Below are positions 4,417-26,161 of a stretch of 32,000 nucleotides of DNA, piece by piece. The position numbers and the translations under genes are program-made. Below the pieces are notes generated by a model. It had not been told where the DNA came from. It did not search any database and saw only the letters and a program-made list of their open reading frames with translations. The stretch's first letter is position 1. Every line of letters begins with the position of its first letter. This DNA comes from Methylorubrum extorquens (lineage in GTDB: Bacteria; Pseudomonadota; Alphaproteobacteria; Rhizobiales; Beijerinckiaceae): positions 1,680,001 through 1,712,000 of the forward strand of contig LT962688.1 of the NCBI GenBank assembly GCA_900234795.1, read 5' to 3'.

Positions 4417-4435
4417 GGGTCTGGCTCCCGACGGA

Positions 4436-7157: not shown

Positions 7158-7190
7158 GCCGTCGCGGCCAATCCACCTCACCTGATCAAA

Positions 7191-7229
7191 GCACAGTGGG
7201 GCGCCGGGTCATCCGGCGCCCCACTGTGC
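7191..7229. terminator. perfect 17-bp stem / 5-nt loop hairpin between convergent genes (bidirectional terminator candidate)
   Basis: GCACAGTGGGGCGCCGG-gtcat-CCGGCGCCCCACTGTGC, read directly from the sequence. It is flanked by TCAAA on one side and CTTCATT on the other, which gives a TTT(G) tail on the minus strand. Confidence 0.6.
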
Positions 7230-7292
7230 CTTCATTGCTGCGTGCCAATGCAGATTTCGGCGGGACCGGATTGTGGTAGGGCCGGCGGGGCT

Positions 7293-7327
7293 GAAAACGA
7301 AAACGCCGGCTCCCAGGGAAGCCGGCG
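7293..7327 (-). terminator. rho-independent terminator of the porin gene
   Basis: Just after the porin stop the minus strand reads CGCCGGCT-tccctggg-AGCCGGCG followed by TTTTCGTTTTC. Confidence 0.65.
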
Positions 7328-7350
7328 CGCCGCTCGCGAAACCGCCAATT

Positions 7351-8700: not shown

Positions 8701-8780
8701 TTGCCTTAACCCCTTGAATGAAGACCCAGGTCGCCTTCCGAGCTGTTTCCCGTCGTTTTCTTATGTCTCGGACCGGGCCG

Positions 8781-9617: not shown

Positions 9618-9804
9618 GGATTGAGCCTTTCAGGATGGCTTGAGGAAGGTGCCGATTTTGATCTGAGAGCTGACTTCGCCTGAAGCCTCTCTCTCGCTCG
9701 GGGAGAACGAGGCTGATCAGAGAAGATCATGGTGTATGACTTATGTTATTCGAACGGCTAGGGAACGCAAGCAGAAGTTGTTTTTCCGGCCGAACATATA
9801 GCCC

Positions 9805-11901: not shown

Positions 11902-12371
11902 GGGGTGACACCTTTCGATATAGATCGATATTGTTCGCGGCAGAATTTTCTGACAAGCTTATATTGGACGATGTAAGAGTATTTCCGGCCCTTCGAGGGG
12001 GCTTGTCGTATTGCGACGCTTTATTGGCAGCGACCGACGTTCCGGAATTTTAACGCCTCAGCACCGGATCTATGTTGGTCCGTGCCGTGTTTCTGAGCAA
12101 GCGTGTTCAATAAAGTTGCAAGATATGTGCGGGCCTTGTGCAGAAGGCCCGTGGTTCCCGGCCGGCCGATGCGCGTCTCCGCCGGTACCGCGCGGCATGC
12201 GGGTCGGTGCCGCCGTCCGGCACTCCGCCGAACGCCCGTGCCGGTTGCGTCCGCGGATCGGGAGCCGAACACCACTCCGCCCACTTGCGCCGAATGCGAA
12301 TCCAGGCTGCAGAGCGCTTAAAACGTGGGCATGAAAGGTAAAAACTTGCGCAGCCCAAAAATGGTCTTCGC

Positions 12372-12400
12372 TTGACCAAGAAAATCGCCGGTCCTAAAAA
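12372..12400 (+). promoter_or_regulatory. sigma70-like promoter candidate for the guanidine operon leader
   Basis: TTGACC (12372-12377), a 17-nt spacer, then TAAAAA (12395-12400), about 15 nt upstream of the riboswitch aptamer. This is a motif match only. Confidence 0.3.
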
Positions 12401-12413
12401 CATCATCGAGTTG

Positions 12414-12516
12414 ATCGCTAGGGTTCCAGCATCTCTTTGATGTGTTCGGTCCGAGAGCGGTTGCCGCGGCGGGAGACATCCGCCCGGATGCACGGCGGGA
12501 TAAAAGCCCGGGAGAC
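12414..12516 (+). promoter_or_regulatory. guanidine-I riboswitch aptamer (ykkC-yxkD leader, subtype 1)
   Basis: Reads GCUAGGGUUCCAGC..UUCGGUCCGAGAGCGG..GCACGGCGGGAUAAAAGCCCGGGAGACC. The blocks CUAGGGUUCC, GGUCCGAGAG and ACGG-CGGGA-AAAAGCCCG-GGAGA match the remembered invariant cores of the ykkC consensus in order and spacing. It is oriented toward the ABC importer and carboxylase genes. Confidence 0.85.
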
Positions 12517-12526
12517 CTCACTAGCC

Positions 12527-12569
12527 AGAGATTGGCAAGGTTAGGTCTTGTACAATCTCTTTCTCTGTT
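12527..12569 (+). terminator. possible expression-platform hairpin with U-rich tail downstream of the guanidine-I aptamer
   Basis: AGAGATTG(12527-12534)/CAATCTCT(12553-12560), with an inner CAAG/CTTG pair, followed by TTCTCTGTT. The switching logic with the aptamer could not be resolved by eye. Confidence 0.35.
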
Positions 12570-12581
12570 GAGAGGGAACGT

Positions 12582-12743
12582 ATGCCCGGCATCAGCCCCC
12601 AGATCGTTTCTCTGACATCAGCTCCCGATCGTCGCCCCGGCGGATCGCACGCCTTGCGCCGCCCGAGGACGGCGCGGGCCGAGATCGCGCGCCTTCGCGG
12701 CCGCTTCGGGGGCAGCACGCGCCTCGTCCCGGTCCGGACGTAA
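12582..12743 (+). CDS. hypothetical 53-codon Arg-rich leader ORF (speculative)
   Basis: ATG at 12582 is preceded by GAGGGA (12572-12577). Product: MPGISPQIVSLTSAPDRRPGGSHALRRPRTARAEIARLRGRFGGSTRLVPVRT. GC3 is about 83%. It is below the track's length cutoff and I recognise no homology. Confidence 0.2.
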   Translation: MPGISPQIVSLTSAPDRRPGGSHALRRPRTARAEIARLRGRFGGSTRLVPVRT

Positions 12744-12784
12744 CGTCCGCGGGCCCGAGCGCCTCACCCCCTTCCAACCTCAGT

Positions 12785-12827
12785 GCCGGCATCCGACGGA
12801 CGGGCTTCTCAGCCCGTCGATGCCGGC
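12785..12827 (+). other. strong bulged hairpin in the operon leader
   Basis: GCCGGCATC-(cgacg bulge)-GACGGGCT-tctc-AGCCCGTCGATGCCGGC, i.e. 17 bp with a 5-nt bulge. It has no U-tract and lies 78 nt before the substrate-binding-protein (SBP) start. Confidence 0.4.
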
Positions 12828-12904
12828 CTGCGCGCAAAATCCGCGGTCGACCCACGGCAAGGGTCGGCCATCCGGTTCCGGCGACGATCCCGAGGAGACG
12901 AGAC

Positions 12905-13915
12905 ATGCGCATCCCGACCCTGATCACCGGCGGCCTCACGCGCCTCCGCCGAAGCCTGTCCGCGCTGACCCTCGCTGCCGGCCTCCTCGCCGCGCCGATG
13001 GCGCAGGCCGCCGAGCCGCTGCGCATCGGCTACAGCGACTGGCCGGGCTGGGTGGCGTGGCAGGTCGCCATCGAGAAGGGCTGGCTCAAGGAGGCCGGCA
13101 TCGACGCCAAGTTCGAGTGGTTCGACTACTCCGCCTCGATGGATGCGTTCTCGGCAGGCAAGCTCGACGCGGTGACCTGCACCAATGGCGACGCCCTCGT
13201 CATGAGCGGCAACGGCGCCCGGAACGTCATGATCCTGCTCACCGACTACTCGAACGGCAACGACATCATCGTCGGCAAGCCGGGGGTGAAGTCGCTGGCC
13301 GACCTCAAGGGCAAGAAGGTCGGGCTCGAAGTCGGCCTCGTCGAGCACCTGCTCCTGATCGACGGCCTGCAGAAGGCCGGGATCAAGGAGAGCGACGTGA
13401 CGCTGGTCAACGCCAAGACCAACGAGACGCCGCAGATCCTCGCCTCCGGCGACGTCGCGGCCATCGGCGCGTGGCAGCCGATCGCCGGCCAGGCGATGCG
13501 CGGCGCGGCGGGTGCCCGTCCGCTCTACAGCTCCGCCGACCGGCCGGGCCTGATCTACGACGTGGTCACGGTGACGCCCGCGAGCCTCGCCGCGCGCCGT
13601 GCCGACTGGATCAAGCTCGTCGGCCTGTGGGACCGGGTCGTCGGCTACATCACGGACCCGAAGACGCAAGGCGACGCGGTCGCCATCATGGCGGCCAAGG
13701 TCGGGGTGGAGCCCGCCGTCTTCACCCGCTTCCTCAAGGGCACCAAGCTGCTGACGCTGGCCGAGGGCCGCGCGGTGATGAAGGATGCCGACGGGTTCGG
13801 CTCGCTCTACGGTTCGAGCCGGCACGCCGATGCCTTCAACGTCAAGTTCGAGGTCTACAAGACCCCGCAGGACGTAAAGGCCGCCATCGACCCCGCCCTC
13901 ACCGACGGCAAGTGA
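12905..13915 (+). CDS. ABC transporter periplasmic substrate-binding protein, NitT/TauT (NMT1-like) family, urea-carboxylase-region type; likely guanidine uptake
   Basis: 336 aa with RBS GAGGAGA 7 nt upstream and a signal peptide (..RLRRSLSALTLAAGLLAAPMAQA). The mature part (..LRIGYSDWPGWVAWQVAIEKGWLKEAGIDAKF..) is typical of this family. It is the first large gene after the guanidine-I riboswitch. Confidence 0.88.
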   Translation: MRIPTLITGGLTRLRRSLSALTLAAGLLAAPMAQAAEPLRIGYSDWPGWVAWQVAIEKGWLKEAGIDAKFEWFDYSASMDAFSAGKLDAVTCTNGDALVMSGNGARNVMILLTDYSNGNDIIVGKPGVKSLADLKGKKVGLEVGLVEHLLLIDGLQKAGIKESDVTLVNAKTNETPQILASGDVAAIGAWQPIAGQAMRGAAGARPLYSSADRPGLIYDVVTVTPASLAARRADWIKLVGLWDRVVGYITDPKTQGDAVAIMAAKVGVEPAVFTRFLKGTKLLTLAEGRAVMKDADGFGSLYGSSRHADAFNVKFEVYKTPQDVKAAIDPALTDGK

Positions 13916-13925
13916 GGGCTTGAGG

Positions 13926-14993
13926 ATGCGCGCGCCGCTGCCTCAGCCCCCTCCCGAGAGGGACGCCGTTCCGGCGGTCGCGGTCGCGGTCGCCCCGCTC
14001 CCGCCGGTGGCGGACGCCGCCCCGGTCGCCGGGCGGGTGCGGCTCTCCTGGGTCGGCGCGCCGCGCCCGCTGACCCGGCGTCGGCGCGTGGCGCTCACCC
14101 TGCTCTCCTTCCTGCTGCCGCTCGGGCTGTGGGCGGCGGTCTCCTACCTGCCCTTCCTCTGGCACCCGCTGGTCGAGGTCACGAATCCCGGCGACGTCGC
14201 CTGGATGGAGCCCGGCATGCGGGTGCCGCGGGCGGCGTTTTCCGAGGAGGTCGCGGCGGCCCAGGGCGCGGGGACGGCTGTGCCCGAGGGACGCCCGGCC
14301 AACCCGGTCTACCTGCCCGCGCCGCACGAGGTCGCGGTGGCCTTCTGGACCTCGCTCACGGCGCCGCCACCGCAGCGCGACACGATCTGGCTGCCCGCGA
14401 GCCTCTGGCACTCGATCCAGATCATTTTTTGGGGCTTCACGATCTCGTCGCTCGTCGGCGTGCCGCTCGGCATCCTGTGCGGGGCGCAACCGACGATCGC
14501 CCGGCTGACCGAGCCCGTGATCGAGTTCGTGCGCTACCTGCCCGCCCCCGCCTTCGGCGCGCTGATGGTCGCGATCCTGGGGATCTACGACGGGCCGAAG
14601 ATCGCCATCATCGTCATCGGCACCTTCTTCCAGCAGGTGCTCGTCATCGCCAACACCACGCGAAGGGTCGATCCGCTGCTGATCGAGGCCGCACTCACCA
14701 TGGGTTCGCGCAACCTGCGCCTGATCCGGCGGGTGATCGTGCCGGCGGTGCTGCCGCAGATCTACCGCGACCAGCGCATCCTGCTCGGCTGGGCCTGGAC
14801 CTACCTCATCGTCGCCGAGCTGATCGGCACCTCGTCCGGCATCACCTTCTTCATCACGCAGCAGGCCCGCTACCAGCATTTCGACAACGTCTACGCCGCG
14901 ATCCTGGTGATCGGCCTCGTCGGCATCGCTACCGACATCGCCCTGGCCCTGCTCGGCCGCCGCCTGTTCCCCTATGCGAGGGCCGAGGCATGA
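13926..14993 (+). CDS. ABC transporter permease (NitT/TauT family)
   Basis: It carries the permease EAA-type region (..[29 protein letters not shown]..). Start is at ATG 13926 (GAGGG 7 nt upstream) or TTG 13920. The stop overlaps the next start (ATGA at 14990-14993). Confidence 0.85.
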
Positions 14994-15940
14994 GAGACGG
15001 CATGAGCGCGTCCGCTCCCATCCCGCTGACGGCCGAGCCGTGTGATTACCGCACCCAGTGCGAGCCCGTCCGCGCCCGCTTCGACCGGCTGAAGGCCCGC
15101 GACGTCGCCCTGCGGGTCGAGGGCCTCGGCAAGGTGTTTCGCAACGCGGACGGCGCCGAGACCGTGGCGCTCCGTGGCATCGATCTCGTCACCCACCGCC
15201 GCGAGTTCCTCTGCGTCGTCGGACCCTCGGGCTGCGGCAAGTCCACCTTCGTGCGCATCCTGGCCGGGCTCGAGACCAAGAGTTCGGGCAGCGTCAGCGT
15301 CGGCGGCGTGCCGGTCTCCGGCCCCGGCGCCGACCGGGGCATGGTGTTCCAGGGTTACACCCTGTTTCCCTGGCTCACGGTCAAGCGCAACGTCGCCTTC
15401 GGCCTGGAGGAGAACGGCGAATCCCGGCATGTGGCCGAGCGCGAGGCGCTGCAATGGCTGGCGCTCATCGGGCTGGAGCGCTTCGCCGACGCCTATCCGC
15501 ACCAGCTCTCCGGCGGCATGAAGCAGCGCGTGGCCATCGCCCGCGCGCTCGCCATGCGCCCGCGTATCCTCTTGATGGACGAGCCGTTCTCGGCGCTCGA
15601 CACCCAGTCGCGGGCCAGGATGCAGGCCTACCTGATCGAGATCTGGCGCAAGATCGACATCACCATCGTCTTCATCACCCACGACCTCGACGAGGCTATT
15701 TACCTCGCCGACCGCATCCTCGTCCTGAAGGCCCATCCCGGCGAGGTCGAGGAGCTGATCGAGGTGCCGGTGCCGCGGCCGCGCCATCCGAGCCAGAGCC
15801 TGACGCCGGAATTCCGCGCCACCCGCGCCCGGCTCGATGCGCTGATCCACCCCGGCGAGGCGGAGGCCGACGGCCCGGCCGATCTCGGTGGCCTCGACAT
15901 GGTGACCCGGATGGCGAGCGTGGGGGACGAGGTCGAATGA
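14990..15940 (+). CDS. ABC transporter ATP-binding protein (NitT/TauT family)
   Basis: This is the C-terminal 316 aa of track ORF 14129..15940, starting [10 protein letters not shown]. It has Walker A (GPSGCGKST), signature ([15 protein letters not shown]) and Walker B ([12 protein letters not shown]). Confidence 0.9.
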
Positions 15941-16737
15941 GCGCCCTCCCCACCCTCCCTTTGCTTTGGTCCGACCGCACCTGGGAGGAGATCCCCGGTG
16001 ACCTCGAAGCGGTCGCGGGGGCTGCGCTCCTGCCCATCGGCGCCACCGAGCAGCACGGGCCGCATCTCGGCTGCGGCATGGATTTCGTGCTGGCCGACCT
16101 CCTCTGCCGCGCGGTCTCGGCGCGCACCCGTGTGCCGATGCTGCCGGCCCTCCCCTACGGCTGCTCGCTCGGCCATTCCCGGCGCTGGCCCGGCACCATC
16201 GCCCTCGACCCTGTCGTGATGACCGAACTCGTCCGGCAGATCGGAAGCCAAGCCTACCATTCGGGCGTGCGCCGCCTGTTCCTCGTCAACGCCCACGTCA
16301 CCAACGCCGCCCCCTTACGCTGCGCGCTCGAACTGCTGCGGGCGACGCATGACGACCTGATGGTTGCGCTCGTCAACACCGCGACCGTCAGCGAGCGGGT
16401 ACGCACGGCCCATTTCATCGACGCCGAGGATTGGCACGCCAACCGGGCCGAGACCGCGCTGATGCAGGCGCAGGCCCCCGCCCTCGTGCGGGAAGACCGC
16501 ATCGTCGACGCCGATGACCCGGACCGTACCCAAAACCTCGTCTTCGCCCACCCGGTCAACCGCACCAGCCGCAACGGCGTCACCGGCTCCCCCTCGCAGT
16601 CGAATGCGGCGGAGGGCGCCGAACTGTTCGCCTGGATGGTCGAGGACCTGACCGCCCTCGTCCGCCGCGGGCTCACCGAGACCCCGCCCCTTCCCCATTC
16701 CTACGACGGCCCCGCCGTCCCCATGCCAGGAGCCTGA
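15937..16737 (+). CDS. creatininase-family metal-dependent amidohydrolase
   Basis: 266 aa starting [18 protein letters not shown]. The ATG overlaps the ATPase stop (ATGA at 15937-15940). Motifs ..[14 protein letters not shown].., ..FLVNAHVTN.. and ..[10 protein letters not shown].. match the creatininase (PF02633-type) fold as I remember it. Confidence 0.8.
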
Positions 16738-16738
16738 A

Positions 16739-18112
16739 ATGGGCCACGCGAACGACATCGATCCGCAGGTGCGCGCCGTGCAGGAGGATCTGCGCGCGAA
16801 GGGCGTGAAATACGTCATCGGCGCCTATGTCGACATCCACGGCGCGCAGAAGGCCAAGGTGGTGCCGATCGACCACCTGCCGCAGATGGCGGCGGGCTCC
16901 GAGCGCTATACCGGCTACGCCCTCGACGGCCTGGGCCAGGCGCCGAACGAGGACGAGCTCGCCTCGGTCCCGGATTTCTCGCAGGTCATCCAGCTCCCCT
17001 TGGAGAGCAAGCTCGCCTGGGCGCCGGCCGACCTCACCTTCCAGGGCAAGCCCTACCCGCTCTCGACCCGCGTCGCCCTCAAGAACGTCCTGGCTCAGGC
17101 CGAGGCGATGGGCTTCGGCTTCAATCTCGGCATCGAGTGCGAAATCTTCCTGCTGCGCCAAGCCGCCGACGGTTCGCTGCACACGCCGGTGGCGGACGAT
17201 AAGCTGGTGAAGCCCTGCTACGACGTGCGCGGCTTCATCGACAACTTCTCCTGGCTCGACAAGGTCGCGACCACGATCAACGATCTCGGCTGGGATCTGT
17301 ACTCGTTCGACCATGAGGATGCGAACGCGCAGTTCGAGTTCGACTTCCAGTACGCCGATGCGCTGACCATGTGCGATCGGCTGACCTTCTTCCGCATGAT
17401 GACCAAGCATTACGCGAAGGAGGAAGGGCTCATCGCCACGATGATGCCCAAGCCCTTTGCCGACCGCACCGGCAACGGTGCCCACTTCAACATGTCGCTC
17501 TCCGACCGCGAGACCGGCCGCAACCTGTTTGCCTGCGCGCCCGGCGAGGATCCCCGCGGCCTCGGCCTCACCGAGACCGGCTACCACTTCATCGGCGGCG
17601 TGCTGCGCCACGGCCGGGCGCTCTGCGCGGCCTTCGCGCCGACCGTGAACAGCTACAAGCGCCTCGTGCGCCAGGGCGCGATGGCGGGCTTCTCCTGGGC
17701 GCCGGTGTTCAACTCCTACGGCTCGAACAACCGCACCAATTCGGTGCGCGTGCCGGCCGGCGGCGGGCGCTGCGAGAGCCGCAACGCGGACGGCGCGGTC
17801 AATCCCTACCTCGCCGCCGCCCTGGTGCTCGCGGCCGGGCTGGAGGGCGTGCGCGAGCGGATCGACCCCGGCCAGCCCAATGAGGACAACCTCTACGCGC
17901 TGAGCGACGGCGAGCGCCGGGCGCGCGGCATCGCGTTCCTGCCCCAGACCCTGCAGGAGGCGGTCGATGCCTTCGCCGCCGATCCCCTGGTCGAGGCGAC
18001 GCTGGGCTCAGGCCTGCGCGAAGAGTTCATCCGGACCAAGCGCGAGGAGTGGAACGCCTACCATCTCACGGTGAGCCCGTGGGAAATCGAGCGCTACAGC
18101 CACCTGTTCTAG
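16739..18112 (+). CDS. glutamine synthetase family (GlnT/type III-like, gamma-glutamyl-amine ligase-like) protein
   Basis: 457 aa, starting 1 nt after the creatininase stop. GS catalytic-domain motifs are present: ..GIECEIFLL.., ..NGAHFNMSL.., ..[28 protein letters not shown]... Confidence 0.85.
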
Positions 18113-18124
18113 GCGGAGGCTCCC

Positions 18125-18496
18125 ATGAAGACCGTCATCGCCTTCGCGAACAGCACCGCCGAGCCCTCGACCTACCGGCCGGCGCCCGAGCGCATCCTGG
18201 CCGGAGACCCGGTCCAGACCGCGACGCTTCACTTCACCAGCGCCGACGGACGGTTCTCCGCCGGCACTTGGGCGGCGGAGCGCGGGACGTGGCGGGTCGT
18301 CTTCACCGAGAGCGAGTTCTGCCACCTGCTCGAAGGGGTGATCGTCGTCACCGACGAGGCCGGGACGCAGACCACCTTCCGGGCCGGCGACGCCTTCGTC
18401 TCGCCGGCCGGCTTCACCGGCACCTGGGAGATCGTCGAGCCCGCCCGCAAGCTCTTCGCCTTCTACGAGGTGCCATCCGCGCCCGACCACCCGTGA
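18125..18496 (+). CDS. cupin domain protein (DUF861/cupin_3-like)
   Basis: 123 aa with RBS GGAGG upstream. ..GTWRVVFTESEFCHLLEGVIVVTDEAGTQTTFRAGDAFVSPAGFTGTWEIVEPARK.. is a single-barrel cupin pattern. Confidence 0.7.
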   Translation: MKTVIAFANSTAEPSTYRPAPERILAGDPVQTATLHFTSADGRFSAGTWAAERGTWRVVFTESEFCHLLEGVIVVTDEAGTQTTFRAGDAFVSPAGFTGTWEIVEPARKLFAFYEVPSAPDHP

Positions 18497-18508
18497 CCCT
18501 TCCATCCT

Positions 18509-18622
18509 CGCCCTCATCCTGAGGTGCCCGCGTCAGCGGGCCTCGAAGGAGGGCTCCAGCCAGCCGCGCGATGTCTGGAGCCCTCCTTCGAGGCCGTTTC
18601 GCGGCACCTCAGCATGAGGGCG
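18509..18622. repeat. 114-bp nested palindrome (REP/MITE-like) inside the operon
   Basis: The outer arms 18509-18528 / 18603-18622 pair at 19 of 20 positions. The inner arms GGCCTCGAAGGAGGGCTCCAG (18539-18559) / CTGGAGCCCTCCTTCGAGGCC (18575-18595) pair at 21 of 21, with a 15-nt loop. I verified this base by base. Confidence 0.85.
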
Positions 18623-18657
18623 AGCGGGGGACAGAACTTTCAAACCTCTTCTGGCCT

Positions 18658-18717
18658 GCCGGGACGGCCCGGCCGCGACAGGGCTTTTGGACCGGGACGA
18701 CCCGGCCCCATCGGAGA
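18658..18717 (+). promoter_or_regulatory. candidate guanidine-II (mini-ykkC) riboswitch: two ACGR-tetraloop hairpins followed by the SD
   Basis: GCCGGG-ACGG-CCCGGC (18658-18673), an 18-nt linker, CCGGG-ACGA-CCCGG (18692-18705), then GGAGA (18713-18717) and ATG at 18726 of the first DUF1989 gene. Confidence 0.7.
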
Positions 18718-18725
18718 CATGCGCA

Positions 18726-19538
18726 ATGTCGGACGAAGCGAGCCAGATTGCGGAAAACCGCCGCCGCTACGAGGAGCTGAAGCAGGCGGGCCAGGGCCAC
18801 GCCCCGCGCGCCCTGCCCGGCCCGAGCCCGCGCGGGCCCGCGCCGCTCGACGAAGGCGCGATCCTCCACCGCGAGATCATCCCCGGCGGCTGGTACTGGA
18901 CCACCGCCCTGAAGGCCGGGGAGGCGATCCGCATCGGCCTCGACCATGGCCCGTCGAGCGTCGCCCTCGTCGCCTGGTCGGCCGCCGACACCAGCGAGCG
19001 GCTGAATTACGCCGACACCGTCAAGGTGCAGTGGACGGCCGCCCTCGCCAAGGGCCGGGTGCTGTTCTCCGATATGGGCCGGGTGATGCTCTCGCTGGTC
19101 GAGGATTCCTGCGGGGCGCACGACGCGCTCGTCGGCGGCTCCAATGCGGCCTCGAACGCCGCGCGCTATGCCGGCGGGCCGCATCGCAATACCCGCGACA
19201 ATCTCGTTCTGGCCGCCCTCAAGAGCGGGCTGGAGCGGCGCGACATCCCTCCTTGCGTCTCGTTCTTCGCCCCCGTCGTCGTCGGGCCTGAGGGTCGCTT
19301 TGCCTGGAATGCCGCCGGCCGGACCACGGGCGACTTCGTGGATCTGCGCGCCGAGATGGACCTGATCGTCACCCTCTCGAACTGCCCCCATCCCCTCGAT
19401 CCAGCGCCCGATTACGCGCCGAACCCGGTGGCGGTGACCCGTTTCCGCGCCCCGCCCCCGGCAATGGACGACCTCTGCCGCACCGCCACGATCGAGGCCG
19501 TGCGCGGCTTCGAGAACAACGCCGCCGCCGGCTTCTGA
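18726..19538 (+). CDS. urea-carboxylase-associated family protein (DUF1989), carboxyguanidine deiminase subunit-like
   Basis: Track ORF 18687.. trimmed to MSDEASQIAENRRRYEEL (GGAGA 8 nt upstream), 270 aa. It pairs with a second DUF1989 paralogue and lies directly upstream of the carboxylase. Confidence 0.85.
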   Translation: MSDEASQIAENRRRYEELKQAGQGHAPRALPGPSPRGPAPLDEGAILHREIIPGGWYWTTALKAGEAIRIGLDHGPSSVALVAWSAADTSERLNYADTVKVQWTAALAKGRVLFSDMGRVMLSLVEDSCGAHDALVGGSNAASNAARYAGGPHRNTRDNLVLAALKSGLERRDIPPCVSFFAPVVVGPEGRFAWNAAGRTTGDFVDLRAEMDLIVTLSNCPHPLDPAPDYAPNPVAVTRFRAPPPAMDDLCRTATIEAVRGFENNAAAGF

Positions 19539-19552
19539 GGGGAGCGATACCG

Positions 19553-20173
19553 ATGACCGACACCGTGACCACGCTCTTCGACGCCATCGTGCCCGCGCAG
19601 GCGCCGTTCTCCACCCTCGTGCGGGCCGGCCAGACCATCCGCATCAAGGACAGCCAGGGCTGCCAGGCCGTCGACACCCTGTTCTACCGGGCCGACGACC
19701 TGGGCGAGCGCTACTCGTCCCAGGATACGGTGCGCGCACAGGGCGCGGCCTACGTCACCACCGGCACGCGGGTGATGTCGAACGAGGGCCGGGTGATGCT
19801 CACCGTCACCGCCGATTCCTGCGGGCGCCACGACACCTCGGCCGGGGCCTGCTCCTGCGAGAGCAACACCGTCCGCTTCGGCCACGCCACCAAGTATCTC
19901 CATGCCTGCCGCGAGAACTTTGCGCTGGAAGTCGCAAAGTACGGCCTGTCGAAGCGCGACATCGTGCCGAACATCAACTTCTTCATGAACGTGCCGATCG
20001 AGCAGGATGGCGGGCTGGCCATCGTCGACGGCGTCTCCTCGCCCGGCGACTATGTCGAGCTGCGGGCCGAGATGGACGTGATCTGCGTGATCTCGAACTG
20101 CCCGCAGATCAACAACCCCTGCAACGGCTTCAACCCCACGCCGATCCGCGTGACCGTCCGCGGCGAGGCTTGA
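19553..20173 (+). CDS. urea-carboxylase-associated family protein (DUF1989), second carboxyguanidine deiminase subunit-like
   Basis: 206 aa. It is a paralogue of the previous gene (shared ..GDYVELRAEMDVICVISNCP.. / ..GDFVDLRAEMDLIVTLSNCP..), with 14-nt and 4-nt intergenic gaps. Confidence 0.85.
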   Translation: MTDTVTTLFDAIVPAQAPFSTLVRAGQTIRIKDSQGCQAVDTLFYRADDLGERYSSQDTVRAQGAAYVTTGTRVMSNEGRVMLTVTADSCGRHDTSAGACSCESNTVRFGHATKYLHACRENFALEVAKYGLSKRDIVPNINFFMNVPIEQDGGLAIVDGVSSPGDYVELRAEMDVICVISNCPQINNPCNGFNPTPIRVTVRGEA

Positions 20174-20177
20174 GCGC

Positions 20178-23100
20178 ATGTTCGCCAAGGTTCTGGTCGC
20201 CAATCGCGGCGAGATCGCCGCCCGCGTCGTGCGCACATTGCGGCGCATGGGCATCGCCTCGGTCGCCGTCTACTCCGACGCTGACCGCTTCACGCCGGGC
20301 GTACTCGCCGCCGACGAGGCCGTGCGCCTCGGCCCCGCGCCGGCCGCGCAGAGCTATCTCGACGTCGAGGCCGTCGTCGCCGCCTGTAAGGCGACCGGCG
20401 CAGAGGCCGTCCATCCCGGCTACGGCTTCCTGTCCGAGAATGTCGGCTTCGCCGAGCGGCTGGCGGCGGAAGGGATCGTTTTCATCGGTCCGCGCCCGGA
20501 GCACCTGCGCGCCTTCGGCCTCAAACACACGGCCCGCGAGCTGGCCAAAGCCAGCGGCGTCCCGCTCCTGCCCGGCACCGACCTCTTGCCCGATCTTGAG
20601 ACGGCGCTGAGCGCAGCCGAGGCGATCGGCTATCCGGTGATGCTCAAGAGCACGGCGGGCGGCGGCGGCATCGGGATGCAGCTCTGCCATTCGGGCCAGG
20701 AGCTGGCCGAGCGCTTCGCTGCGGTCGAGCGCACCGCGCGGGCCAGCTTCGGCGACGCCCGCGTCTATCTCGAGCGCTTCGTGGCGCAGGCCCGCCATGT
20801 CGAGGTGCAGATCTTCGGCGACGGGCGCGGCCGCGTCGTGGCGCTCGGCGAACGCGACTGTTCGCTCCAGCGCCGGAACCAGAAGGTGATCGAGGAGACG
20901 CCCGCCCCCGGCCTCTCCGACGCCGTGCGCGCCCGGCTCCACGCCGCGGCGGTGGCTTTGGGGGAGAGCGTCGCCTACGCCTCGGCCGGCACCGTCGAGT
21001 TCATCTACGATCCCACGCGCGAGGATTTCTCGTTCCTCGAAGTGAACACCCGGCTCCAAGTGGAGCACCCGGTGACGGAGGCGGTGTTCGGCATCGACCT
21101 CGTGGAATGGATGGTGCGCCAGGCCGCGGGCGAAGACCCGATCACGGCGGCCGGGCCGCTCGTGCCGAGGGGCGCGGCGATCGAGGCCCGGCTCTACGCC
21201 GAGATCCCGCACGCGAATTTCTCGCCGAGCGCCGGCCTGCTGACCGAGGTGCGCTTCCCCGAGACCGCCCGCATCGACGGCTGGATCGCCACCGGCACCG
21301 AGGTCACCCCGTTCTACGACCCGATGCTCGCCAAGATCATCGTCACCGGCACCGACCGTCCGGCGGCTTTGGCCGAACTCCGGGCAGCGCTGGCCGACAC
21401 CGCCATCTCCGGTATCGAGACCAACCTCGACTACCTCCGCACCATTGCCGCCTCCGACCTGCTGGCGAGCGGGCGCGTCGCGACCACGGCCCTGCGCGAC
21501 CTCGCCTATGCTCCCAAAAGCATCGAAGTGCTGCTGCCGGGCGCCCAGTCCAGCCTTCAGGAGCTGCCCGGCCGGCTCGGCCTGTGGGAGGTCGGCGTGC
21601 CGCCGAGCGGGCCGATGGATGCCCGCTCCTTCGCCCAGGCCAACGCCCTCGTCGGCAACGGGCAGGACACCTGCGCCCTCGAACTCACCGTCTCGGGCCC
21701 GACGCTGCGCTTCCACACGGATGCGCGGGTGGCCCTCGCGGGCGCTGCGATGCGGCTCACCCTCGACGGTGAGGCGCGCCCGCACGGGCAGGCTTTCTCG
21801 GTGAAGGCGGGCCAGACGCTCGCCATCGGCGCGATCGAGGGGCCGGGCCAACGCGCCTATCTCGCCCTGCGCGGCGGCCTCGCGGCGCCCGTGGTGCTCG
21901 GCTCGCGCGCGACCTTCGCGCTGGGCGCCTTCGGTGGCCACGCCACCGGCGTCCTGAAGGCCGGCGACGTGCTCCATCTCGGCGATGCGCTGGAGGTCAC
22001 CGCCGCCCCGCCCGAGCCCGCGCCGCTGACGCAGGATTGGGAGATCGGCGTCGTCTACGGCCCGCACGGCGCGCCGGACTTCTTCCAGGAGGCCGATATC
22101 GCCGATCTGTTCTCGGCGTCCTACGAGGTGCATTTCAACTCGGCCCGCACGGGCGTGCGCCTGATCGGCCCGACGCCGCGCTGGGCGCGGACCGACGGCG
22201 GCGAGGCGGGCTTGCACCCCTCGAACCTGCACGACAACGCCTACGCCCTCGGCGCCATCGACTTCACCGGCGACATGCCGATCCTGCTCGGCCCCGACGG
22301 GCCGAGTCTCGGCGGCTTTGTCTGCCCCGCGGTGATCGCCCGCGACGAGCTGTGGAAGATGGGCCAGCTCCGGCCCGGCGACACGGTGCGCTTCCGTCCC
22401 CTGGCCCGGCCGGAGGACGCGCTCGCCGCCCCGGCCCTGATCGGTGGCGCGGGCAGCCTGCCCGGCTCGCCCATCCTCGCCCGCGACGAGACCGGCCTGG
22501 TCCCCGTCGCCTATCGCCGCCAGGGCGACGACAACCTCCTCGTCGAGTACGGCCCGATGGCCCTCGATATCGGCTTGCGGCTGCGGGTCCACCTGCTCGC
22601 CGAGGCGGTGCGCGCCGCGCGGCTGCCCGGTCTGACCGACCTGACGCCCGGCATCCGCTCGCTTCAGATCCACTACGACGGGACGGCGCTGCCGCGCTCG
22701 CGCCTGCTCGGCAGCCTGCGCGAGATCGAGGCCGGATTGCCGCCGGCGGAGGCCGTCAGCGTCCCGAGTCGTACCGTTCACCTGCCGCTCTCGTGGAACG
22801 ACCCGCAGGCGGAACTGGCCATGCGCAAGTACCAGGAGTTGGTGCGCCCCAACGCACCCTGGTGCCCCTCGAACATCGAGTTCATCCGCCGCATCAACGG
22901 CCTGCCCGACGAGGCGGCGGTGCGCAGCATCATCTTCGATGCGAGCTACCTCGTGATGGGGCTCGGCGATGTCTATCTCGGCGCGCCGGTCGCCACCCCG
23001 GTCGATCCGCGCCACCGCCTTGTGACCACCAAGTACAACCCGGCCCGCACCTGGACGCCGGAGAACGCGGTCGGGATCGGCGGTGCCTATCTATGCATCT

Positions 23101-23708
23101 ACGGCATGGAGGGGCCGGGCGGGTACCAGCTGTTCGGACGCACGATCCAGGTCTGGAACACGTGGCGGACCACCCGCGAATTCGTGCCCGGCCATCCCTG
23201 GCTGCTGCGGCCCTTCGACCGCATCCGCTTCTTCCCCGTCAGCCATGACGAGCTCACCGAGGCCCGCGCCGCCTTTCCGCACGGCGCCTATCCGATCCGG
23301 ATCGAGGACGGCACGTTCTCCTACGCCGAGCACCGAATGATGCTCGCGGGCAACGCCGCCGAGATCGAGCAGGCGGGGGCGCGCCAGAGGGCGGCCTTCG
23401 CGGCCGAGCGCGAGCGCTGGAAGGCGGAAGGCCTCGACAGCTTCGTCGCCGACGAGGCGGTGGCGGCGGAGGCCGCCGAGATCCCGCCGGGCTGCGAGGG
23501 CGTGCCGACCACCGTGCCTGGCAATGTCTGGAAGGTTCTGGTCGGCGAGGGCGAGACCGTAGCCGCCGGCCAGACGGTGGCGATCCTCGAATCGATGAAG
23601 ATGGAGGTGGCGGTCACCGCCCCCGTCGGCGGCCGGGTCCGCGAGATCCGGGCCCAGCCCGGCCGCACCCTGCGCGGCGGCGACCTCGTCGCCATCCTCG
23701 AGACCTGA
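20178..23708 (+). CDS. biotin-dependent urea/guanidine carboxylase (biotin carboxylase + allophanate-hydrolase-subunit-like CT domains + BCCP)
   Basis: 1176 aa. It has an N-terminal ATP-grasp biotin carboxylase (MFAKVLVANRGEIAARVV...), central KipA/KipI-like domains, and a C-terminal biotinyl domain with ..ILESMKMEVAV... The riboswitches and DUF1989 pair argue that guanidine is the substrate. Confidence 0.92.
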   Translation: MFAKVLVANRGEIAARVVRTLRRMGIASVAVYSDADRFTPGVLAADEAVRLGPAPAAQSYLDVEAVVAACKATGAEAVHPGYGFLSENVGFAERLAAEGIVFIGPRPEHLRAFGLKHTARELAKASGVPLLPGTDLLPDLETALSAAEAIGYPVMLKSTAGGGGIGMQLCHSGQELAERFAAVERTARASFGDARVYLERFVAQARHVEVQIFGDGRGRVVALGERDCSLQRRNQKVIEETPAPGLSDAVRARLHAAAVALGESVAYASAGTVEFIYDPTREDFSFLEVNTRLQVEHPVTEAVFGIDLVEWMVRQAAGEDPITAAGPLVPRGAAIEARLYAEIPHANFSPSAGLLTEVRFPETARIDGWIATGTEVTPFYDPMLAKIIVTGTDRPAALAELRAALADTAISGIETNLDYLRTIAASDLLASGRVATTALRDLAYAPKSIEVLLPGAQSSLQELPGRLGLWEVGVPPSGPMDARSFAQANALVGNGQDTCALELTVSGPTLRFHTDARVALAGAAMRLTLDGEARPHGQAFSVKAGQTLAIGAIEGPGQRAYLALRGGLAAPVVLGSRATFALGAFGGHATGVLKAGDVLHLGDALEVTAAPPEPAPLTQDWEIGVVYGPHGAPDFFQEADIADLFSASYEVHFNSARTGVRLIGPTPRWARTDGGEAGLHPSNLHDNAYALGAIDFTGDMPILLGPDGPSLGGFVCPAVIARDELWKMGQLRPGDTVRFRPLARPEDALAAPALIGGAGSLPGSPILARDETGLVPVAYRRQGDDNLLVEYGPMALDIGLRLRVHLLAEAVRAARLPGLTDLTPGIRSLQIHYDGTALPRSRLLGSLREIEAGLPPAEAVSVPSRTVHLPLSWNDPQAELAMRKYQELVRPNAPWCPSNIEFIRRINGLPDEAAVRSIIFDASYLVMGLGDVYLGAPVATPVDPRHRLVTTKYNPARTWTPENAVGIGGAYLCIYGMEGPGGYQLFGRTIQVWNTWRTTREFVPGHPWLLRPFDRIRFFPVSHDELTEARAAFPHGAYPIRIEDGTFSYAEHRMMLAGNAAEIEQAGARQRAAFAAERERWKAEGLDSFVADEAVAAEAAEIPPGCEGVPTTVPGNVWKVLVGEGETVAAGQTVAILESMKMEVAVTAPVGGRVREIRAQPGRTLRGGDLVAILET

Positions 23709-23792
23709 GGGCGGGACGGATCTTGCAAGGCCCGAGCGGCCGGACGGCGGAGCCCGCCCGGCGCGCTCCTCGCACAGGCACGGAGACGGCCG

Positions 23793-23912
23793 ATGATGCA
23801 GCAGATCCACCGCACCCTCACCGCGATCCTCGGTCTGGTCGTGCTCGGCCTCCAGGCCAAGGCTGCCGGACGGCTGCCGCAGGGTGAGCGGGGCCGGGAG
23901 ACGCCGCGATAG
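23793..23912 (+). CDS. hypothetical 39-aa single-pass membrane micro-protein (speculative)
   Basis: GGAGA lies 6 nt upstream of ATG. Product: MMQQIHRTLTAILGLVVLGLQAKAAGRLPQGERGRETPR. GC3 is about 87%. It sits in the otherwise empty 305-nt gap between the carboxylase and the allophanate hydrolase. Confidence 0.25.
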   Translation: MMQQIHRTLTAILGLVVLGLQAKAAGRLPQGERGRETPR

Positions 23913-24012
23913 GCCTTCCGGCCGCCGGGCCATCAGGCTCGGGCCGCCGGAGCCATCCCCCCTTCGAATTTCGGGCCGCGTGCTGCCGCCCCTTCACGGA
24001 CGTGAGAGATCG

Positions 24013-25848
24013 ATGCCGGTTCCCGCCTTCCCGAGCCTCAGCGCGCTCCACGCCGCCTATGCCGAGGGGCTCTCGCTCGAGGTGGTTCTGGCCGAGATCG
24101 ACCGCCGCATCGCTGTTGCCGACGATCCCGGCATCTTCCTCGCGCGGGTGCCGGCGGCGGAGATGCAGGCCGCCGCCCGCGCGCTGGGCCCCTTCGACCC
24201 CGCCAACAAACCGCTCTGGGGCGTGCCTTTCGCGGTAAAGGACAATGTCGACGTGGCGGGCCTGCCCACCACCGCCGCCTGCCCGGATTTCGCCTACACG
24301 CCGCAGGCGACCGCCCCGGCGGTCGAGCGCCTGCTCGCGGCCGGCGCGATCCTCGTCGGCAAGACCAATCTCGACCAGTTCGCCACCGGGCTGGTCGGTG
24401 TGCGCACGCCCTATCCGGTGCCGAAGAACGCCATCGATCCCACGATCGTGCCGGGCGGCTCCTCGTCCGGCTCGGCGGTGGCGGTGGCGCGCGGCCTCGT
24501 CACCTTCGCGCTCGGCACCGACACGGCGGGTTCGGGCCGGGTGCCGGCCGGCCTCAACAACATCGTCGGGCTCAAGCCCTCCCTCGGCAGCGTCTCGGGC
24601 CGCGGCGTGGTCCCGGCCTGCCGCACGCTGGACACCCTCTCCGTCTTCGCCGGCACCGTGACGGAGGCCGATGTGGTCTTTCGGATCATGGCCGGATACG
24701 ATCCGCAGGATCCGTATTCGCGCGCCCTGCCCGTTCCACCCCGCCCCGGTGCCCTGCCCCCCGGCCTGAGGGTCGGCGTGCCGGATGCGGCGAGCCTGAT
24801 CTTTGCCGGCGACGCGCTCTCGGCGAATGCCTTCGACGGGGCACTCGCCGACCTGGACACGGTGATCGGCGGCGCGGCGGTGACGGTCGATCTCGCGCCC
24901 TTCTTCGCGGTGGCGGGGCTTCTCTATGCCGGCCCCTGGGTGGCCGAGCGCTATCAGGCGATCCGCGGTTTCATCGAGGAGCGCCCGGAGGCCCTGCACC
25001 CGACCACGCGGGCGATCATCGGCGCGGCCACCGGTCACTCGGCGGCGGATGCCTTCGCCGGCCTCTACCGCCTCGCCGAACTGCGCCGGGCGACGGAAGT
25101 CGTCTGGCGCGGAATCGACGTGCTCGTGGTGCCGACCTATCCGCGTCCGCGCCGCGTCGCCGACCTCGCCGCCGACCCGGTCGGCCCCAACAGCGAGCTC
25201 GGCACCTACACCAACTTCGTCAACCTGCTCGATCTCTGCGCCCTCGCGGTGCCGGGGCGCTTCCGGGCCGACGGCCGCCCGTCCGGCGTCACGCTGATCG
25301 CGCCGCGCGGGGCCGACGGCCTCATCGCCGAACTCGGCGCCCGCCTCCACGCGGCGGCCGGCGGCACCCTCGGAGCGAGCGGCGTGCCGATCCCGGCGGA
25401 GGCCGCATCGCCGGGGGATCGCGCGCAAAGGGGAGATCGCGCGCAAGGGGACGAGATCGAGATCGCGGTGGTCGGCGCGCACCTGTCCGGCCTGCCGCTC
25501 AACGGCGAGCTGACCGCCCGTGGCGCCCGCTTCCTGCGCGCCGTCCGCACGACGCCGGATTACCGCCTGCACGCGCTGCCCGGCGGGCCGCCGGCCCGGC
25601 CCGGCCTGATCCGCGTCGCGCCCGGGTCGGGCCATGCGATCGAGACCGAGGTTTGGGCGCTGACACCGGACGCCTTCGGCTCCTTCGTGGCGGGGATTCC
25701 CGCGCCGCTCGCGATCGGCACGCTGTCGCTGGCCGACGGCACGGCGCCGAAGGGATTTTTGGCGGAAGCGGCCGGGCTGACGGGGGCGCGCAACATCAGC
25801 GACCACGGCGGCTGGCGCGCCTATCTCGCCTCCGTAACAGCGACGTAG
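24013..25848 (+). CDS. atzF: allophanate hydrolase
   Basis: Track ORF 23884.. trimmed to MPVPAFPSLSALHAAYAEG, 611 aa. It has the amidase signature (..GGSSSGSAVAVARG..GTDTAGSGRVPA..) and the C-terminal AtzF-type domain. Confidence 0.9.
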   Translation: MPVPAFPSLSALHAAYAEGLSLEVVLAEIDRRIAVADDPGIFLARVPAAEMQAAARALGPFDPANKPLWGVPFAVKDNVDVAGLPTTAACPDFAYTPQATAPAVERLLAAGAILVGKTNLDQFATGLVGVRTPYPVPKNAIDPTIVPGGSSSGSAVAVARGLVTFALGTDTAGSGRVPAGLNNIVGLKPSLGSVSGRGVVPACRTLDTLSVFAGTVTEADVVFRIMAGYDPQDPYSRALPVPPRPGALPPGLRVGVPDAASLIFAGDALSANAFDGALADLDTVIGGAAVTVDLAPFFAVAGLLYAGPWVAERYQAIRGFIEERPEALHPTTRAIIGAATGHSAADAFAGLYRLAELRRATEVVWRGIDVLVVPTYPRPRRVADLAADPVGPNSELGTYTNFVNLLDLCALAVPGRFRADGRPSGVTLIAPRGADGLIAELGARLHAAAGGTLGASGVPIPAEAASPGDRAQRGDRAQGDEIEIAVVGAHLSGLPLNGELTARGARFLRAVRTTPDYRLHALPGGPPARPGLIRVAPGSGHAIETEVWALTPDAFGSFVAGIPAPLAIGTLSLADGTAPKGFLAEAAGLTGARNISDHGGWRAYLASVTAT

Positions 25849-25945
25849 AGCCGTGCCCGGCCCGATCTCATCGGTCTAGAGGCCCTTTGGAGAAACCTCT
25901 CGGGGGGATGAACCCTTTCCTTGTCGGAAGCCAAGGAGGTTCACG

Positions 25946-26161
25946 ATGGCAGACGCGAAGACGGAGCGGGAGGCGGTCGGGACACAGCCGCCCGGTCGCC
26001 CGCTCGGTGAGCGCAGCAAGCCCGAAGCGGAGCCGGATCTCGGACCGACGGGCCCGGCCTCGGCCGAGGGCGAAAAACCCGGCCCTCAATCCGGCGGCTA
26101 CGATCGGCAATCGCCGGATCGTTCGACGGACAATGCAAAGGGCGGCTACGGCGCCGGCTGA
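25946..26161 (+). CDS. small hydrophilic, disordered Gly/Pro/Glu-rich protein (hypothetical)
   Basis: 71 aa with a strong RBS (AAGGAGG 6 nt upstream of ATG). A perfect 15-bp hairpin follows immediately. Confidence 0.5.
   Translation: MADAKTEREAVGTQPPGRPLGERSKPEAEPDLGPTGPASAEGEKPGPQSGGYDRQSPDRSTDNAKGGYGAG

Follow-up and report, generated by a model that had tools for sequence, protein, structure and literature searches.

Why would a single guanidine-assimilation locus carry riboswitches of two classes for one ligand, one at its entry and the other at an internal junction? This question is raised by a locus of Methylorubrum extorquens that we have followed up in the window (the whole 32,000-nt stretch of DNA that was analysed, to which all coordinates refer). 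Judged from its sequence, the segment 18656-18705 on the + strand is almost certainly a guanidine-II (mini-ykkC) riboswitch. We also consider it likely that the explanation as a whole is right, namely that this element would be a translational ON switch at cgdA and an internal second sensor on one long transcript starting at a guanidine-I riboswitch. There is little new here in principle: standard covariance models rightly flag the second guanidine sensor of this methylotroph locus. The locus offers a useful natural comparison for work on the reasons for combining two riboswitch classes that sense one ligand, and the features likeliest to reward experiments are the accessory genes and the riboswitches that lie inside upstream coding regions.

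Identity of the internal element

Scanning the whole window with Rfam (cmscan, gathering thresholds) gave exactly two matches, RF01068 and RF00442. The match to RF01068 (Guanidine-II) covers 18656-18705 (+) with 41.0 bits against a gathering threshold of 32 (E 4.8e-5 for the 32-kb window) and positions 1-48 of the 48 in the model. The parts of the element, and the ribosome-binding site behind it, are as follows.

18656-18675 (+): Guanidine-II hairpin P1, core stem 18658-18663 / 18668-18673, loop ACGG 18664-18667
18676-18691 (+): P1-P2 linker, 16 nt in the Rfam alignment, 18 nt between the core stems
18692-18705 (+): Guanidine-II hairpin P2, CCGGG-ACGA-CCCGG, loop ACGA 18697-18700
18713-18728 (+): cgdA ribosome-binding site, SD GGAGA 18713-18717 and ATG 18726-18728; putative target of regulation

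The core of P1 is GCCGGG-ACGG-CCCGGC (18658-18673), which Rfam lengthens to 18656-18675 with one U/C mismatch; the SD lies 7 nt past P2, and the ATG 8 nt beyond the SD. The traits of the family, two ACGR loops closed by G-C (GGG-ACGR-CCC), a short variable linker and an SD after P2, are thus present, and the same defining features are found in the RF01068 members of E. coli (sugE), P. aeruginosa and G. violaceus. Those representatives occupy the 5' UTR of a single exporter gene, whereas the window element sits at an internal operon junction. The hairpins, their ACGR loops, the 18-nt spacer, the GGAGA and the ATG at 18726 read in the sequence just as the first-pass annotation had described them. 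The same annotation had named background frequency in a G+C-rich genome as a concern, and this applies to single hairpins only. ACGR hairpins (at least 4 bp, G-C closing pair, both strands) number 8 in the window versus 5.3 +/- 2.2 expected from first-order Markov shuffles of it (67.7% G+C, n=300), so that single ones are at background, whereas tandem pairs within 40 nt occur once versus 0.02 expected (6/300 shuffles).

The element recurs in relatives. Guanidine-II precedes the cgdA homologue by 15-110 nt in 42 of 80 related species-level genomes, belonging to Methylobacterium, Xanthobacter, Rhizobium, Agrobacterium, Afipia, Kaistia and other genera, and Rfam also matches both riboswitch classes in loci of Methylobacterium, Xanthobacter, Agrobacterium, Afipia and Rhodoblastus. 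A covariance model made from the window element and searched over 1.47 Mb of related loci gave no match at E <= 1e-4 except upstream of cgdA; the sole match below 1e-3 away from that site and the + strand is the reverse complement of the element itself in one relative (L013, E 2.7e-4). When 43 sequences (39 distinct) were aligned, in a fit to the model that favours the structure, 91% of cells were paired, 6 of the 14 pairs showed changes in both partners (5 in P1), and none of 500 shuffles reached the observed covariation score. It is the outer pairs of P1 that covary over the 39 distinct sequences (one pair is G-C in 24, A-U in 8, G-U in 3 and C-G in 1), while the P2 stem is nearly invariant. 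The linker measures 12-28 nt, with a sequence conserved only among close relatives; a linker "GGG" was considered as a motif and set aside, since many sequences have it but others do not. The SD of 32 relatives follows P2 by 7-20 nt and precedes the start codon by 3-11 nt. Two lines of evidence that the first-pass annotation had proposed for its guanidine-II assignment, comparison with RF01068 and examination of orthologous loci, bear it out: the full-model score exceeds the gathering threshold, and both hairpins are kept, with covariation, in the 42 genomes.

A repeat lies close to the element.

18507-18628 (no strand assigned): REP/MITE-like palindrome, 122 nt, between the two halves of the locus and outside the riboswitch, recognised by folding and blastn

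One could argue that the two hairpins are chance G+C-rich structure, a part of this neighbouring repeat, or a terminator or stabiliser of the upstream operon, with no ligand sensing involved. The genome is indeed 68% G+C, lone ACGR hairpins are at background (8 versus 5.3), and the palindrome ends 27 nt upstream of P1. We nevertheless hold this to be highly improbable, because a tandem pair is expected only 0.02 times per window, the RF01068 score is above gathering, the same site is kept in 42 genomes with or without the palindrome and with compensatory changes in P1, and the sequence reads without a U-tract after either P1 or P2.

The guanidine-I element and the genes of the locus

The second Rfam match is the sensor at the locus entry, which the first-pass annotation had placed at 12414-12516, some 6 kb from the internal one. 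The Rfam boundaries are slightly wider, and the element lies ~6.1 kb upstream of guanidine-II, on the same strand and in the same cluster.

12407-12516 (+): guanidine-I (ykkC subtype 1) aptamer, Rfam RF00442, 74.8 bits versus gathering 63, E 9.3e-12, full model
12517-12600 (+): candidate expression platform after guanidine-I, alternative hairpins, SD-like GAGAGGGAA then ATG 12583

A separately built guanidine-I model (R2) gave 112.7 bits on the window aptamer, which is nearly invariant in L001-L004 and L055. The adjoining segment 12517-12600, in whose predicted fold UCUCUUUC pairs with GAGAGGGA, is likewise nearly invariant in six Methylobacterium/Methylorubrum sequences, while the rest of the leader (~300 nt) is divergent and contains indels. 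This segment is a candidate expression platform of guanidine-I; the 390 nt that separate guanidine-I from the first gene point to a transcriptional mechanism or to action through a leader ORF, for which the conserved uORF start at 12583 is a candidate.

Every gene between 12905 and 25848 is encoded on the + strand.

12905-13915 (+): ABC transporter substrate-binding protein, NitT/TauT-type (TIGR03427 143 bits, below cutoff; SsuA_fam)
13920-14993 (+): ABC transporter permease (Pfam BPD_transp_1, 3.6e-22)
15002-15940 (+): ABC transporter ATPase (NCBIfam ntrCD/SaoA-type ATPase, 1e-67; start 14990 or 15002)
15937-16737 (+): creatininase-family protein (Pfam Creatininase 1.5e-61; its ATG overlaps the ATPase stop, ATGA)
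16739-18112 (+): GS-like ligase, type III glutamate-ammonia / glutamate-methylamine ligase family (TIGR03105 641 bits, cutoff 470)
18125-18496 (+): Cupin_3 (EutQ-like) small protein, closing the upstream half (Pfam 3.6e-24; PDB 3bcw, uncharacterized)
18726-19538 (+): cgdA-like, DUF1989, "urea amidolyase associated protein UAAP1" (Pfam DUF1989 1.5e-51; TIGR03425 280 bits, cutoff 206)
19553-20173 (+): cgdB-like, DUF1989, UAAP2 (Pfam DUF1989 1.4e-69; TIGR03424 329 bits, cutoff 285)
20178-23708 (+): biotin-dependent urea/guanidine carboxylase (TIGR02712 urea carboxylase, 1778 bits)
23884-25848 (+): allophanate hydrolase (NCBIfam 844 bits from residue 50; Pfam Amidase + AH_C)

The carboxylase carries the Pfam domains biotin carboxylase, CT_A_B, CT_C_D and biotin_lipoyl, and the true start of the allophanate hydrolase may lie downstream of 23884. 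Gaps are short in this half, 14 nt between cgdA and cgdB and 4 nt between cgdB and the carboxylase gene. Domain matches and positions agree with the earlier statement that the internal element is followed by the SD and start codon of the DUF1989-carboxylase half. In the upstream half, the substrate-binding protein weakly matches "putative urea ABC transporter SBP" and its gene is syntenic in relatives; the best PDB matches of the GS-like ligase are 9qur, "Glutamate--methylamine ligase" (5e-112), and 7cql. For the creatininase-family product, the scores against the NCBIfam models for creatininase and MftE fall short of the cutoffs, and the best PDB match, creatininase 1q3k, reaches only 2e-20.

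A creatinine/creatine catabolic locus was also considered, given the creatininase-family gene, the urea-carboxylase-type enzymes and a nearby sarcosine oxidase. It was rejected: none of the ORFs tested has a creatinase-type domain, the creatininase match falls below the NCBIfam cutoffs, and the sarcosine oxidase genes form a divergent betaine-type cluster on the opposite strand.

One transcript or two

We favour, as the probable arrangement, a single transcript on which the two riboswitches would act serially. The alternative, to which we give a clearly smaller chance, is that both riboswitches are real but work in parallel: the palindrome at 18507-18628 would end or process the guanidine-I transcript, and cgdA, cgdB, the carboxylase and the hydrolase would have their own promoter and answer to guanidine-II only. 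The palindrome is very stable (-105 kcal/mol, z = -11, for the fold of 18497-18640, which contains it) and sits exactly between the two halves, after the cupin gene and before P1. In this particular genome the transcript could be terminated or processed there. The palindrome has no U-tract, however, and it is a mobile insertion: L001, L002, L003 and L055 carry it at this site, L006 and L007 have copies at other sites, and M. rhodesianum (L004) lacks it, so that its cupin stop lies just ~20 nt from P1. A whole-window repeat search did not list it.

A promoter/terminator scan of 11500-26000 gave none near either riboswitch or in 18497-18655, and no sigma-70-like promoter between 12000 and 26000; the promoter consensus being E. 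coli-like, this is weak evidence. The 27 nt between palindrome and P1 also speak against a separate promoter, and in relatives the upstream gene is as close to P1 (12-27 nt in L005-L008, L012 and L022) or its ORF overlaps the element (~20 loci). Such short or negative gaps leave an intergenic promoter no room and argue for an intra-operon position; where the upstream ATPase ORF traverses the riboswitch, as in those ~20 relatives (Xanthobacter autotrophicus is an example), the RNAs must be co-transcribed. On the other side, a transcription start has been mapped 7 nt ahead of the guanidine-II element of M. gryphiswaldense (PMC9549626), in a different context, and guanidine-II can evidently act alone. 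Of the 42 guanidine-II genomes, 28 have guanidine-I upstream on the same strand, but nine relatives with enough upstream sequence, including the other Methylobacterium L005-L009 and L012, have guanidine-II and no guanidine-I within 10 kb, so that the two sensors need not occur together.

Proposed mechanism

On the serial arrangement, the guanidine-I element at 12407-12516 would be the first sensor, controlling expression of the importer and accessory genes on one long transcript that most likely starts there, and guanidine-II would then decide whether the ATP-consuming degradation enzymes are translated. Judging by characterised homologues, each ACGR loop would bind one guanidinium ion, after which P1 and P2 would kiss through their loops, and this dimerisation would open a weak structure at the ribosome-binding site, onto which the 30S subunit could load. 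Guanidine-II would in this way be a translational ON switch for cgdA (ATG 18726), with ligand response and polarity presumed from the family, and the close spacing (14-nt and 4-nt gaps) would probably bring cgdB and the carboxylase under its control as well. Cooperative guanidinium binding and ligand-induced loop-loop contact are known for other members (PMC5558903, PMC9094411, PMC12508155), and the mutational study of the P. aeruginosa gdm-II, with its P0 OFF helix, provides a precedent for the mechanism (PMC10351892).

Folding predictions count against this mechanism. For the window RNA, the predicted ensemble gives the local P1 and P2 hairpins a probability of 0.06, and they lose to an extended duplex between the P1 and P2 strands, which are near-identical. 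Partition functions for 32 sequences, with P1/P2 enforced or not, left the predicted pairing of SD and AUG unchanged (SD pairing forced versus free, 0.50 versus 0.50 in the window and a mean of 0.60 versus 0.62 over the 32). [quoted passage not shown] An OFF-state helix was thus not identified, and a P0-type helix such as that of the P. aeruginosa member (PMC10351892) is, unlike there, not demonstrable by prediction for the window element. A weak local hairpin, GACAU (18716-18720) with AUGUC (18726-18730), is predicted to span the AUG.

Comparison with published dual-riboswitch operons

Guanidine-I at the entry combined with an internal guanidine-II is an already described layout, and in this respect the locus is largely ordinary; the novelty that the first-pass annotation had implied for the two-class arrangement was overstated (PMC12186494, PMC12508155). 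Operons of the Enterobacterales Raoultella, Klebsiella and Erwinia have guanidine-I at the entry and guanidine-II internally (PMC12186494). In Vreelandella boliviensis, a Gd-I in the 5' UTR and an internal Gd-II both bind guanidine by in-line probing, and the whole operon is induced (PMC12508155). The V. boliviensis operon and the window share a one-strand cluster with guanidine-I entry, ABC importer, cgdA/B, carboxylase, allophanate hydrolase, internal class II element and inserted accessory genes (PMC12508155). According to the summary of Sinn et al. 2021 in PMC12186494, the operons of Raoultella terrigena, Klebsiella michiganensis and Erwinia rhapontici likewise have the importer under guanidine-I and degradation genes next under guanidine-II.

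In V. boliviensis, Gd-II lies between cgdB and gca, with cgdAB in the first half, whereas the window element precedes cgdA (PMC12508155). The same summary of Sinn et al. 2021 (PMC12186494) places cgdAB of the three other operons in the guanidine-I part and guanidine-II before the carboxylase and allophanate hydrolase. At that published position, the cgdB-carboxylase junction, the window has no guanidine-II, its two genes being 4 nt apart. Among metagenome loci, guanidine-II directly upstream of the carboxylase is found in eight (L091, L092, L095, L097, L109, L120, L121 and L145), which have the same pathway genes and riboswitch class, several with the ABC, creatininase-like and GS-like module; the position before cgdA is found among metagenome loci only in L085, and is a variant common to the 42 loci of Hyphomicrobiales genomes. 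With guanidine-II before cgdA, the whole enzymatic pathway stands behind it, and the variant would thus place the entire ATP-dependent degradation pathway, beyond the carboxylase alone, behind a second checkpoint. The window further differs from V. boliviensis in the REP-like palindrome that splits its halves, in its accessory genes (creatininase-family, GS-like and cupin instead of mgdH/mgdL; PMC12508155), and in that its RNAs are identified by covariance models, whereas those of V. boliviensis were probed in-line (PMC12508155). The hosts of the Raoultella, Klebsiella and Erwinia operons are Gammaproteobacteria and the window host is an alphaproteobacterium; with 28 species-level genomes of Hyphomicrobiales, the dual-class layout reaches well past Gammaproteobacteria, its internal switch being one junction upstream.

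Accessory genes and ligand range

Another possible reason for keeping both classes, though we think it rather unlikely, would be a difference in ligand range, guanidine-I responding to guanidine only and guanidine-II also to methylguanidine. Substituted guanidines, or a local product, would then license the degradation enzymes through the internal switch, and supplying the pathway with such compounds would be the role of the creatininase-family, GS-like and cupin genes. There is precedent in V. boliviensis, whose Gd-I binds guanidine (KD 44 uM) and not methylguanidine, while its Gd-II binds both (93 and 83 uM, respectively), and whose accessory genes mgdH and mgdL, which broaden the substrate range, lie inside the dual-riboswitch operon as the accessory genes do here (PMC12508155). 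Of 45 metagenome loci measuring 6 kb or more, 29 have a creatininase-like/GS-like pair adjoining the cgdAB-carboxylase genes, and guanidine-I stands ahead of the accessory module in L081, L106, L108 and L114. Against this, the GS-like enzyme may merely re-assimilate released ammonia, and the literature searched for guanidine riboswitch or guanidine carboxylase together with creatininase-family or GS-like genes returned nothing relevant that would tie the accessory genes to guanidine.

A more speculative proposal, which we put forward with little confidence, is the following: the pair of creatininase-family and glutamate-methylamine-ligase-like genes, with a dedicated ABC importer and under guanidine-I control, may be an uncharacterised guanidine-compound branch, in which the two riboswitch classes, differing in ligand range, would split uptake and conversion from core degradation and the Hyphomicrobiales placement before cgdA would be an adapted form of this circuit. 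In such a branch, for example, a substituted or cyclic guanidine would be converted and the released amine captured.

As a separate observation, many genomes have the creatininase-family/GS-like pair beside their cgdAB-carboxylase cluster.

Guanidine-II element upstream of cgdA

The short region before the cgdA-like gene carries two ACGR-loop hairpins, P1 and P2, and its sequence (18656-18728) proved to be as described in the first-pass annotation, with both hairpins, the Shine-Dalgarno sequence (SD) and the start codon in place:

18658-18673, +, P1 hairpin, GCCGGG-ACGG-CCCGGC
18692-18705, +, P2 hairpin, CCGGG-ACGA-CCCGG
18713-18717, +, SD, GGAGA
18726, +, start codon of the cgdA-like gene, ATG

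Scanning the whole window with Rfam 15 at gathering thresholds returned two matches only, both on the + strand: RF01068 (Guanidine-II), which covers 18656-18705 over the full model and scores 41.0 bits (gathering threshold 32), and RF00442 (Guanidine-I), which covers 12407-12516 and scores 74.8 bits (threshold 63). Both the guanidine-II assignment proposed in that annotation and its claim of two riboswitch classes within one gene cluster are borne out by these matches. Single ACGR hairpins occur at background level in this DNA of 67.7% G+C (8 in the window vs 5.3 +/- 2.2 in shuffles). The whole window has just one tandem pair, with a chance expectation of 0.02 per window.

The predicted conservation of the hairpins also held in related genomes. 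Eighty loci were collected via the CgdA-like protein, one genome per species, the nearest relatives being Methylobacterium and Methylorubrum (at most 94% amino-acid identity). In 42 of these loci, tandem hairpins lie 15-110 nt 5' of the CgdA match, a result on which a regular-expression screen, Rfam scans (14 representative loci) and our guanidine-II covariance model, R1, all agree; among the genera are Methylobacterium, Methylorubrum, Xanthobacter, Rhizobium, Agrobacterium, Ciceribacter, Afipia, Kaistia, Rhodoblastus and Methylovirgula, together with several MAGs. Away from this site, R1 gave no match at E <= 1e-4 across 1.47 Mb. Among the 39 distinct sequences aligned, pairing holds in 91% of cells and both-sided changes affect 6 of 14 pairs, five of them in outer P1 (one outer pair is G-C in 24 sequences, A-U in 8, G-U in 3 and C-G in 1). 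The covariation score exceeds that of every shuffle and slid register, with the caveat that this alignment had itself been fitted to the model. Sequence, structure, score, position and covariation establish membership of the guanidine-II family.

Because family membership is established, we infer the mechanism by homology: guanidinium would be bound in each ACGR loop, P1 and P2 would then dimerise loop to loop, and the RNA surrounding the ribosome-binding site would open as a result, so that the element would act as an ON switch for translation (PMC5558903; PMC10351892). Pairing predictions and complementarity tests found no OFF-state helix: forcing P1 and P2 left the predicted SD pairing unchanged, and complementarity of the linker or 5' tail to the SD region was not above shuffled controls. 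Thermodynamic modelling of the window RNA prefers an extended duplex of the near-identical P1 and P2 strands, and a weak predicted hairpin (GACAU/AUGUC) covers the start codon; we regard both as OFF-state candidates rather than findings.

Gene context and guanidine-I leader

All genes from 12905 to 25848 lie on the + strand, and those behind guanidine-I, from the importer to the cupin, are closely packed, with one ATGA overlap and spacings of 1-12 nt. A divergent betaine/sarcosine-type cluster (1131-11901, -, and 5763-7157, +) lies upstream of guanidine-I.

Genes of the locus and its flanks
1131-4313, -, sarcosine oxidase alpha subunit (betaine/sarcosine-type cluster)
4436-5872, -, sarcosine oxidase beta-like subunit (same cluster)
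5763-7157, +, GbdR-like AraC/DJ-1 regulator (same cluster)
8781-9617, -, OpuAC-type binding protein (same cluster)
10573-11901, -, ABC ATPase with CBS domain (same cluster)
12905-13915, +, NitT/TauT-type ABC importer, substrate-binding protein
13920-14993, +, same importer type, permease
15002-15940, +, same importer type, ATPase
15937-16737, +, creatininase-family protein
16739-18112, +, GS-like ligase (NCBIfam type III glutamate-ammonia ligase, 641 bits; closest solved structures, glutamate-methylamine ligases 9qur and 7cql)
18125-18496, +, small cupin
18726-19538, +, cgdA-like UAAP1
19553-20173, +, cgdB-like UAAP2
20178-23708, +, urea/guanidine-type biotin carboxylase (TIGR02712, 1778 bits)
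23884-25848, +, allophanate hydrolase
28652-29620, -, DUF4062 protein, downstream of the locus
30548-31777, -, IS3-family transposase (rve, HTH_Tnp_1), downstream of the locus

The cgdA, cgdB, carboxylase and allophanate hydrolase set constitutes the guanidine carboxylase pathway (PMC12186494). Our guanidine-I model, R2, found the aptamer in 32 loci. Of the 42 guanidine-II loci, 28 carry it upstream on the same strand, at about 3 kb where a three-gene ABC transporter alone intervenes and at about 6.3 kb in the window's nearest relatives (L001-L004, L055), which have the three extra genes (creatininase-family, GS-like and cupin). Four loci have guanidine-I without guanidine-II. Conversely, nine guanidine-II loci with sufficient upstream sequence (Methylobacterium L005-L009 and L012; L022, L053, L054) lack guanidine-I within 10 kb upstream, and these 10 kb contain no other Rfam match in L005. 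The same nine loci keep the module of ABC transporter, creatininase-like and GS-like genes along with guanidine-II.

About 390 nt (12517-12905) separate guanidine-I from the first gene. In six species the aptamer and roughly 95 nt beyond it, including an SD-like GAGAGGGAA and ATG 12583, are almost invariant, and the remaining leader, the body of a 53-codon ORF included, diverges with indels. This distance, and conservation limited to the aptamer and its immediate 3' flank, suggest control that is transcriptional or exerted via the leader ORF or a Rho-type platform; a classical terminator or direct masking of the transporter SD would seem less fitting.

Relation to published dual-class operons

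The pairing of an entry guanidine-I with a guanidine-II inside the operon has already been published. In Vreelandella boliviensis, Gd-I recognises guanidine only (KD 44 µM), the values for Gd-II are 93 µM for guanidine and 83 µM for methylguanidine, the entire operon is induced, and the authors name dual control as a topic for future study (PMC12508155). In the published dual-class operons, guanidine-II sits at the junction of cgdB and the carboxylase gene, as it does in eight metagenome loci, whereas it precedes cgdA in the window, the 42 genome loci and one metagenome locus (L085). The pre-cgdA placement varies the position within an architecture already known and does not define a new kind of system; this class of riboswitch and the logic of dual-class operons have been described before, and a standard Rfam scan detects both elements.

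Junction between the two halves

The junctions of several relatives favour a single transcript across both halves. The gap between upstream gene and P1 is 12-27 nt in L005-L008, L012 and L022, and in M. rhodesianum (L004) the cupin gene stops about 20 nt short of P1. The upstream ABC ATPase ORF spans the riboswitch in about 20 loci (L013, 9135-9959; L058, 9153-9980; L014, L015, L017, L019, L021, L023-L026, L028, L030, L032, L038, L040, L042, L045, L046, L048), the window not among them. These ORFs have no stop before guanidine-II, run on through both hairpins (tail ...PGRDDPA...GPGRDDPA) and end at or beside the cgdA start, with an ATGA overlap in L058, L019, L028, L030/L032 and L038. Where a riboswitch is thus placed within coding sequence, one may ask how it and ribosomes arriving from upstream affect each other, although the read-through may be a by-product, since stop-free runs are fairly likely by chance at high G+C.

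The 229-nt cupin-cgdA intergenic region of the window comprises a 122-nt near-perfect palindrome (18507-18628), a 27-nt spacer and guanidine-II; 18497-18640, palindrome included, folds at about -105 kcal/mol (z = -11). The palindrome is a mobile REP/MITE-like repeat. It occupies the orthologous site in L001 (about 9817-9900), L002, L003 and L055, is missing from M. rhodesianum, and has copies at other sites in L006 and L007 (e.g. L007 2966-3011); L009 carries a different palindrome at the same junction (-91 kcal/mol). In Methylobacterium bullatum and relatives (L007, about 13700-13840; L006, 13746-13827; L008), the guanidine carboxylase gene itself contains a copy of the window's palindrome, which adds about 40 aa in frame between subdomains A/B and C/D of the carboxyltransferase. 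Because this mobile REP-like element intervenes, an effect on read-through between the window's two halves is possible.

Accessory creatininase-like and GS-like pair

In a search of metagenome contigs that used aligned creatininase-family proteins as query, the creatininase-like and GS-like genes proved to be neighbours in all loci with enough downstream sequence, mostly with an ABC transporter of the same type ahead of them. Of 45 metagenome loci of 6 kb or more, 29 have the pair next to the cgdAB-carboxylase-hydrolase genes, on the same strand or divergently; guanidine-I lies ahead of the module in L081, L106, L108 and L114. Within the literature searched, no paper was found that connects the pair with guanidine metabolism. 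The two genes may do no more than re-assimilate ammonia or, by analogy with mgdH/mgdL, may extend the substrate range.
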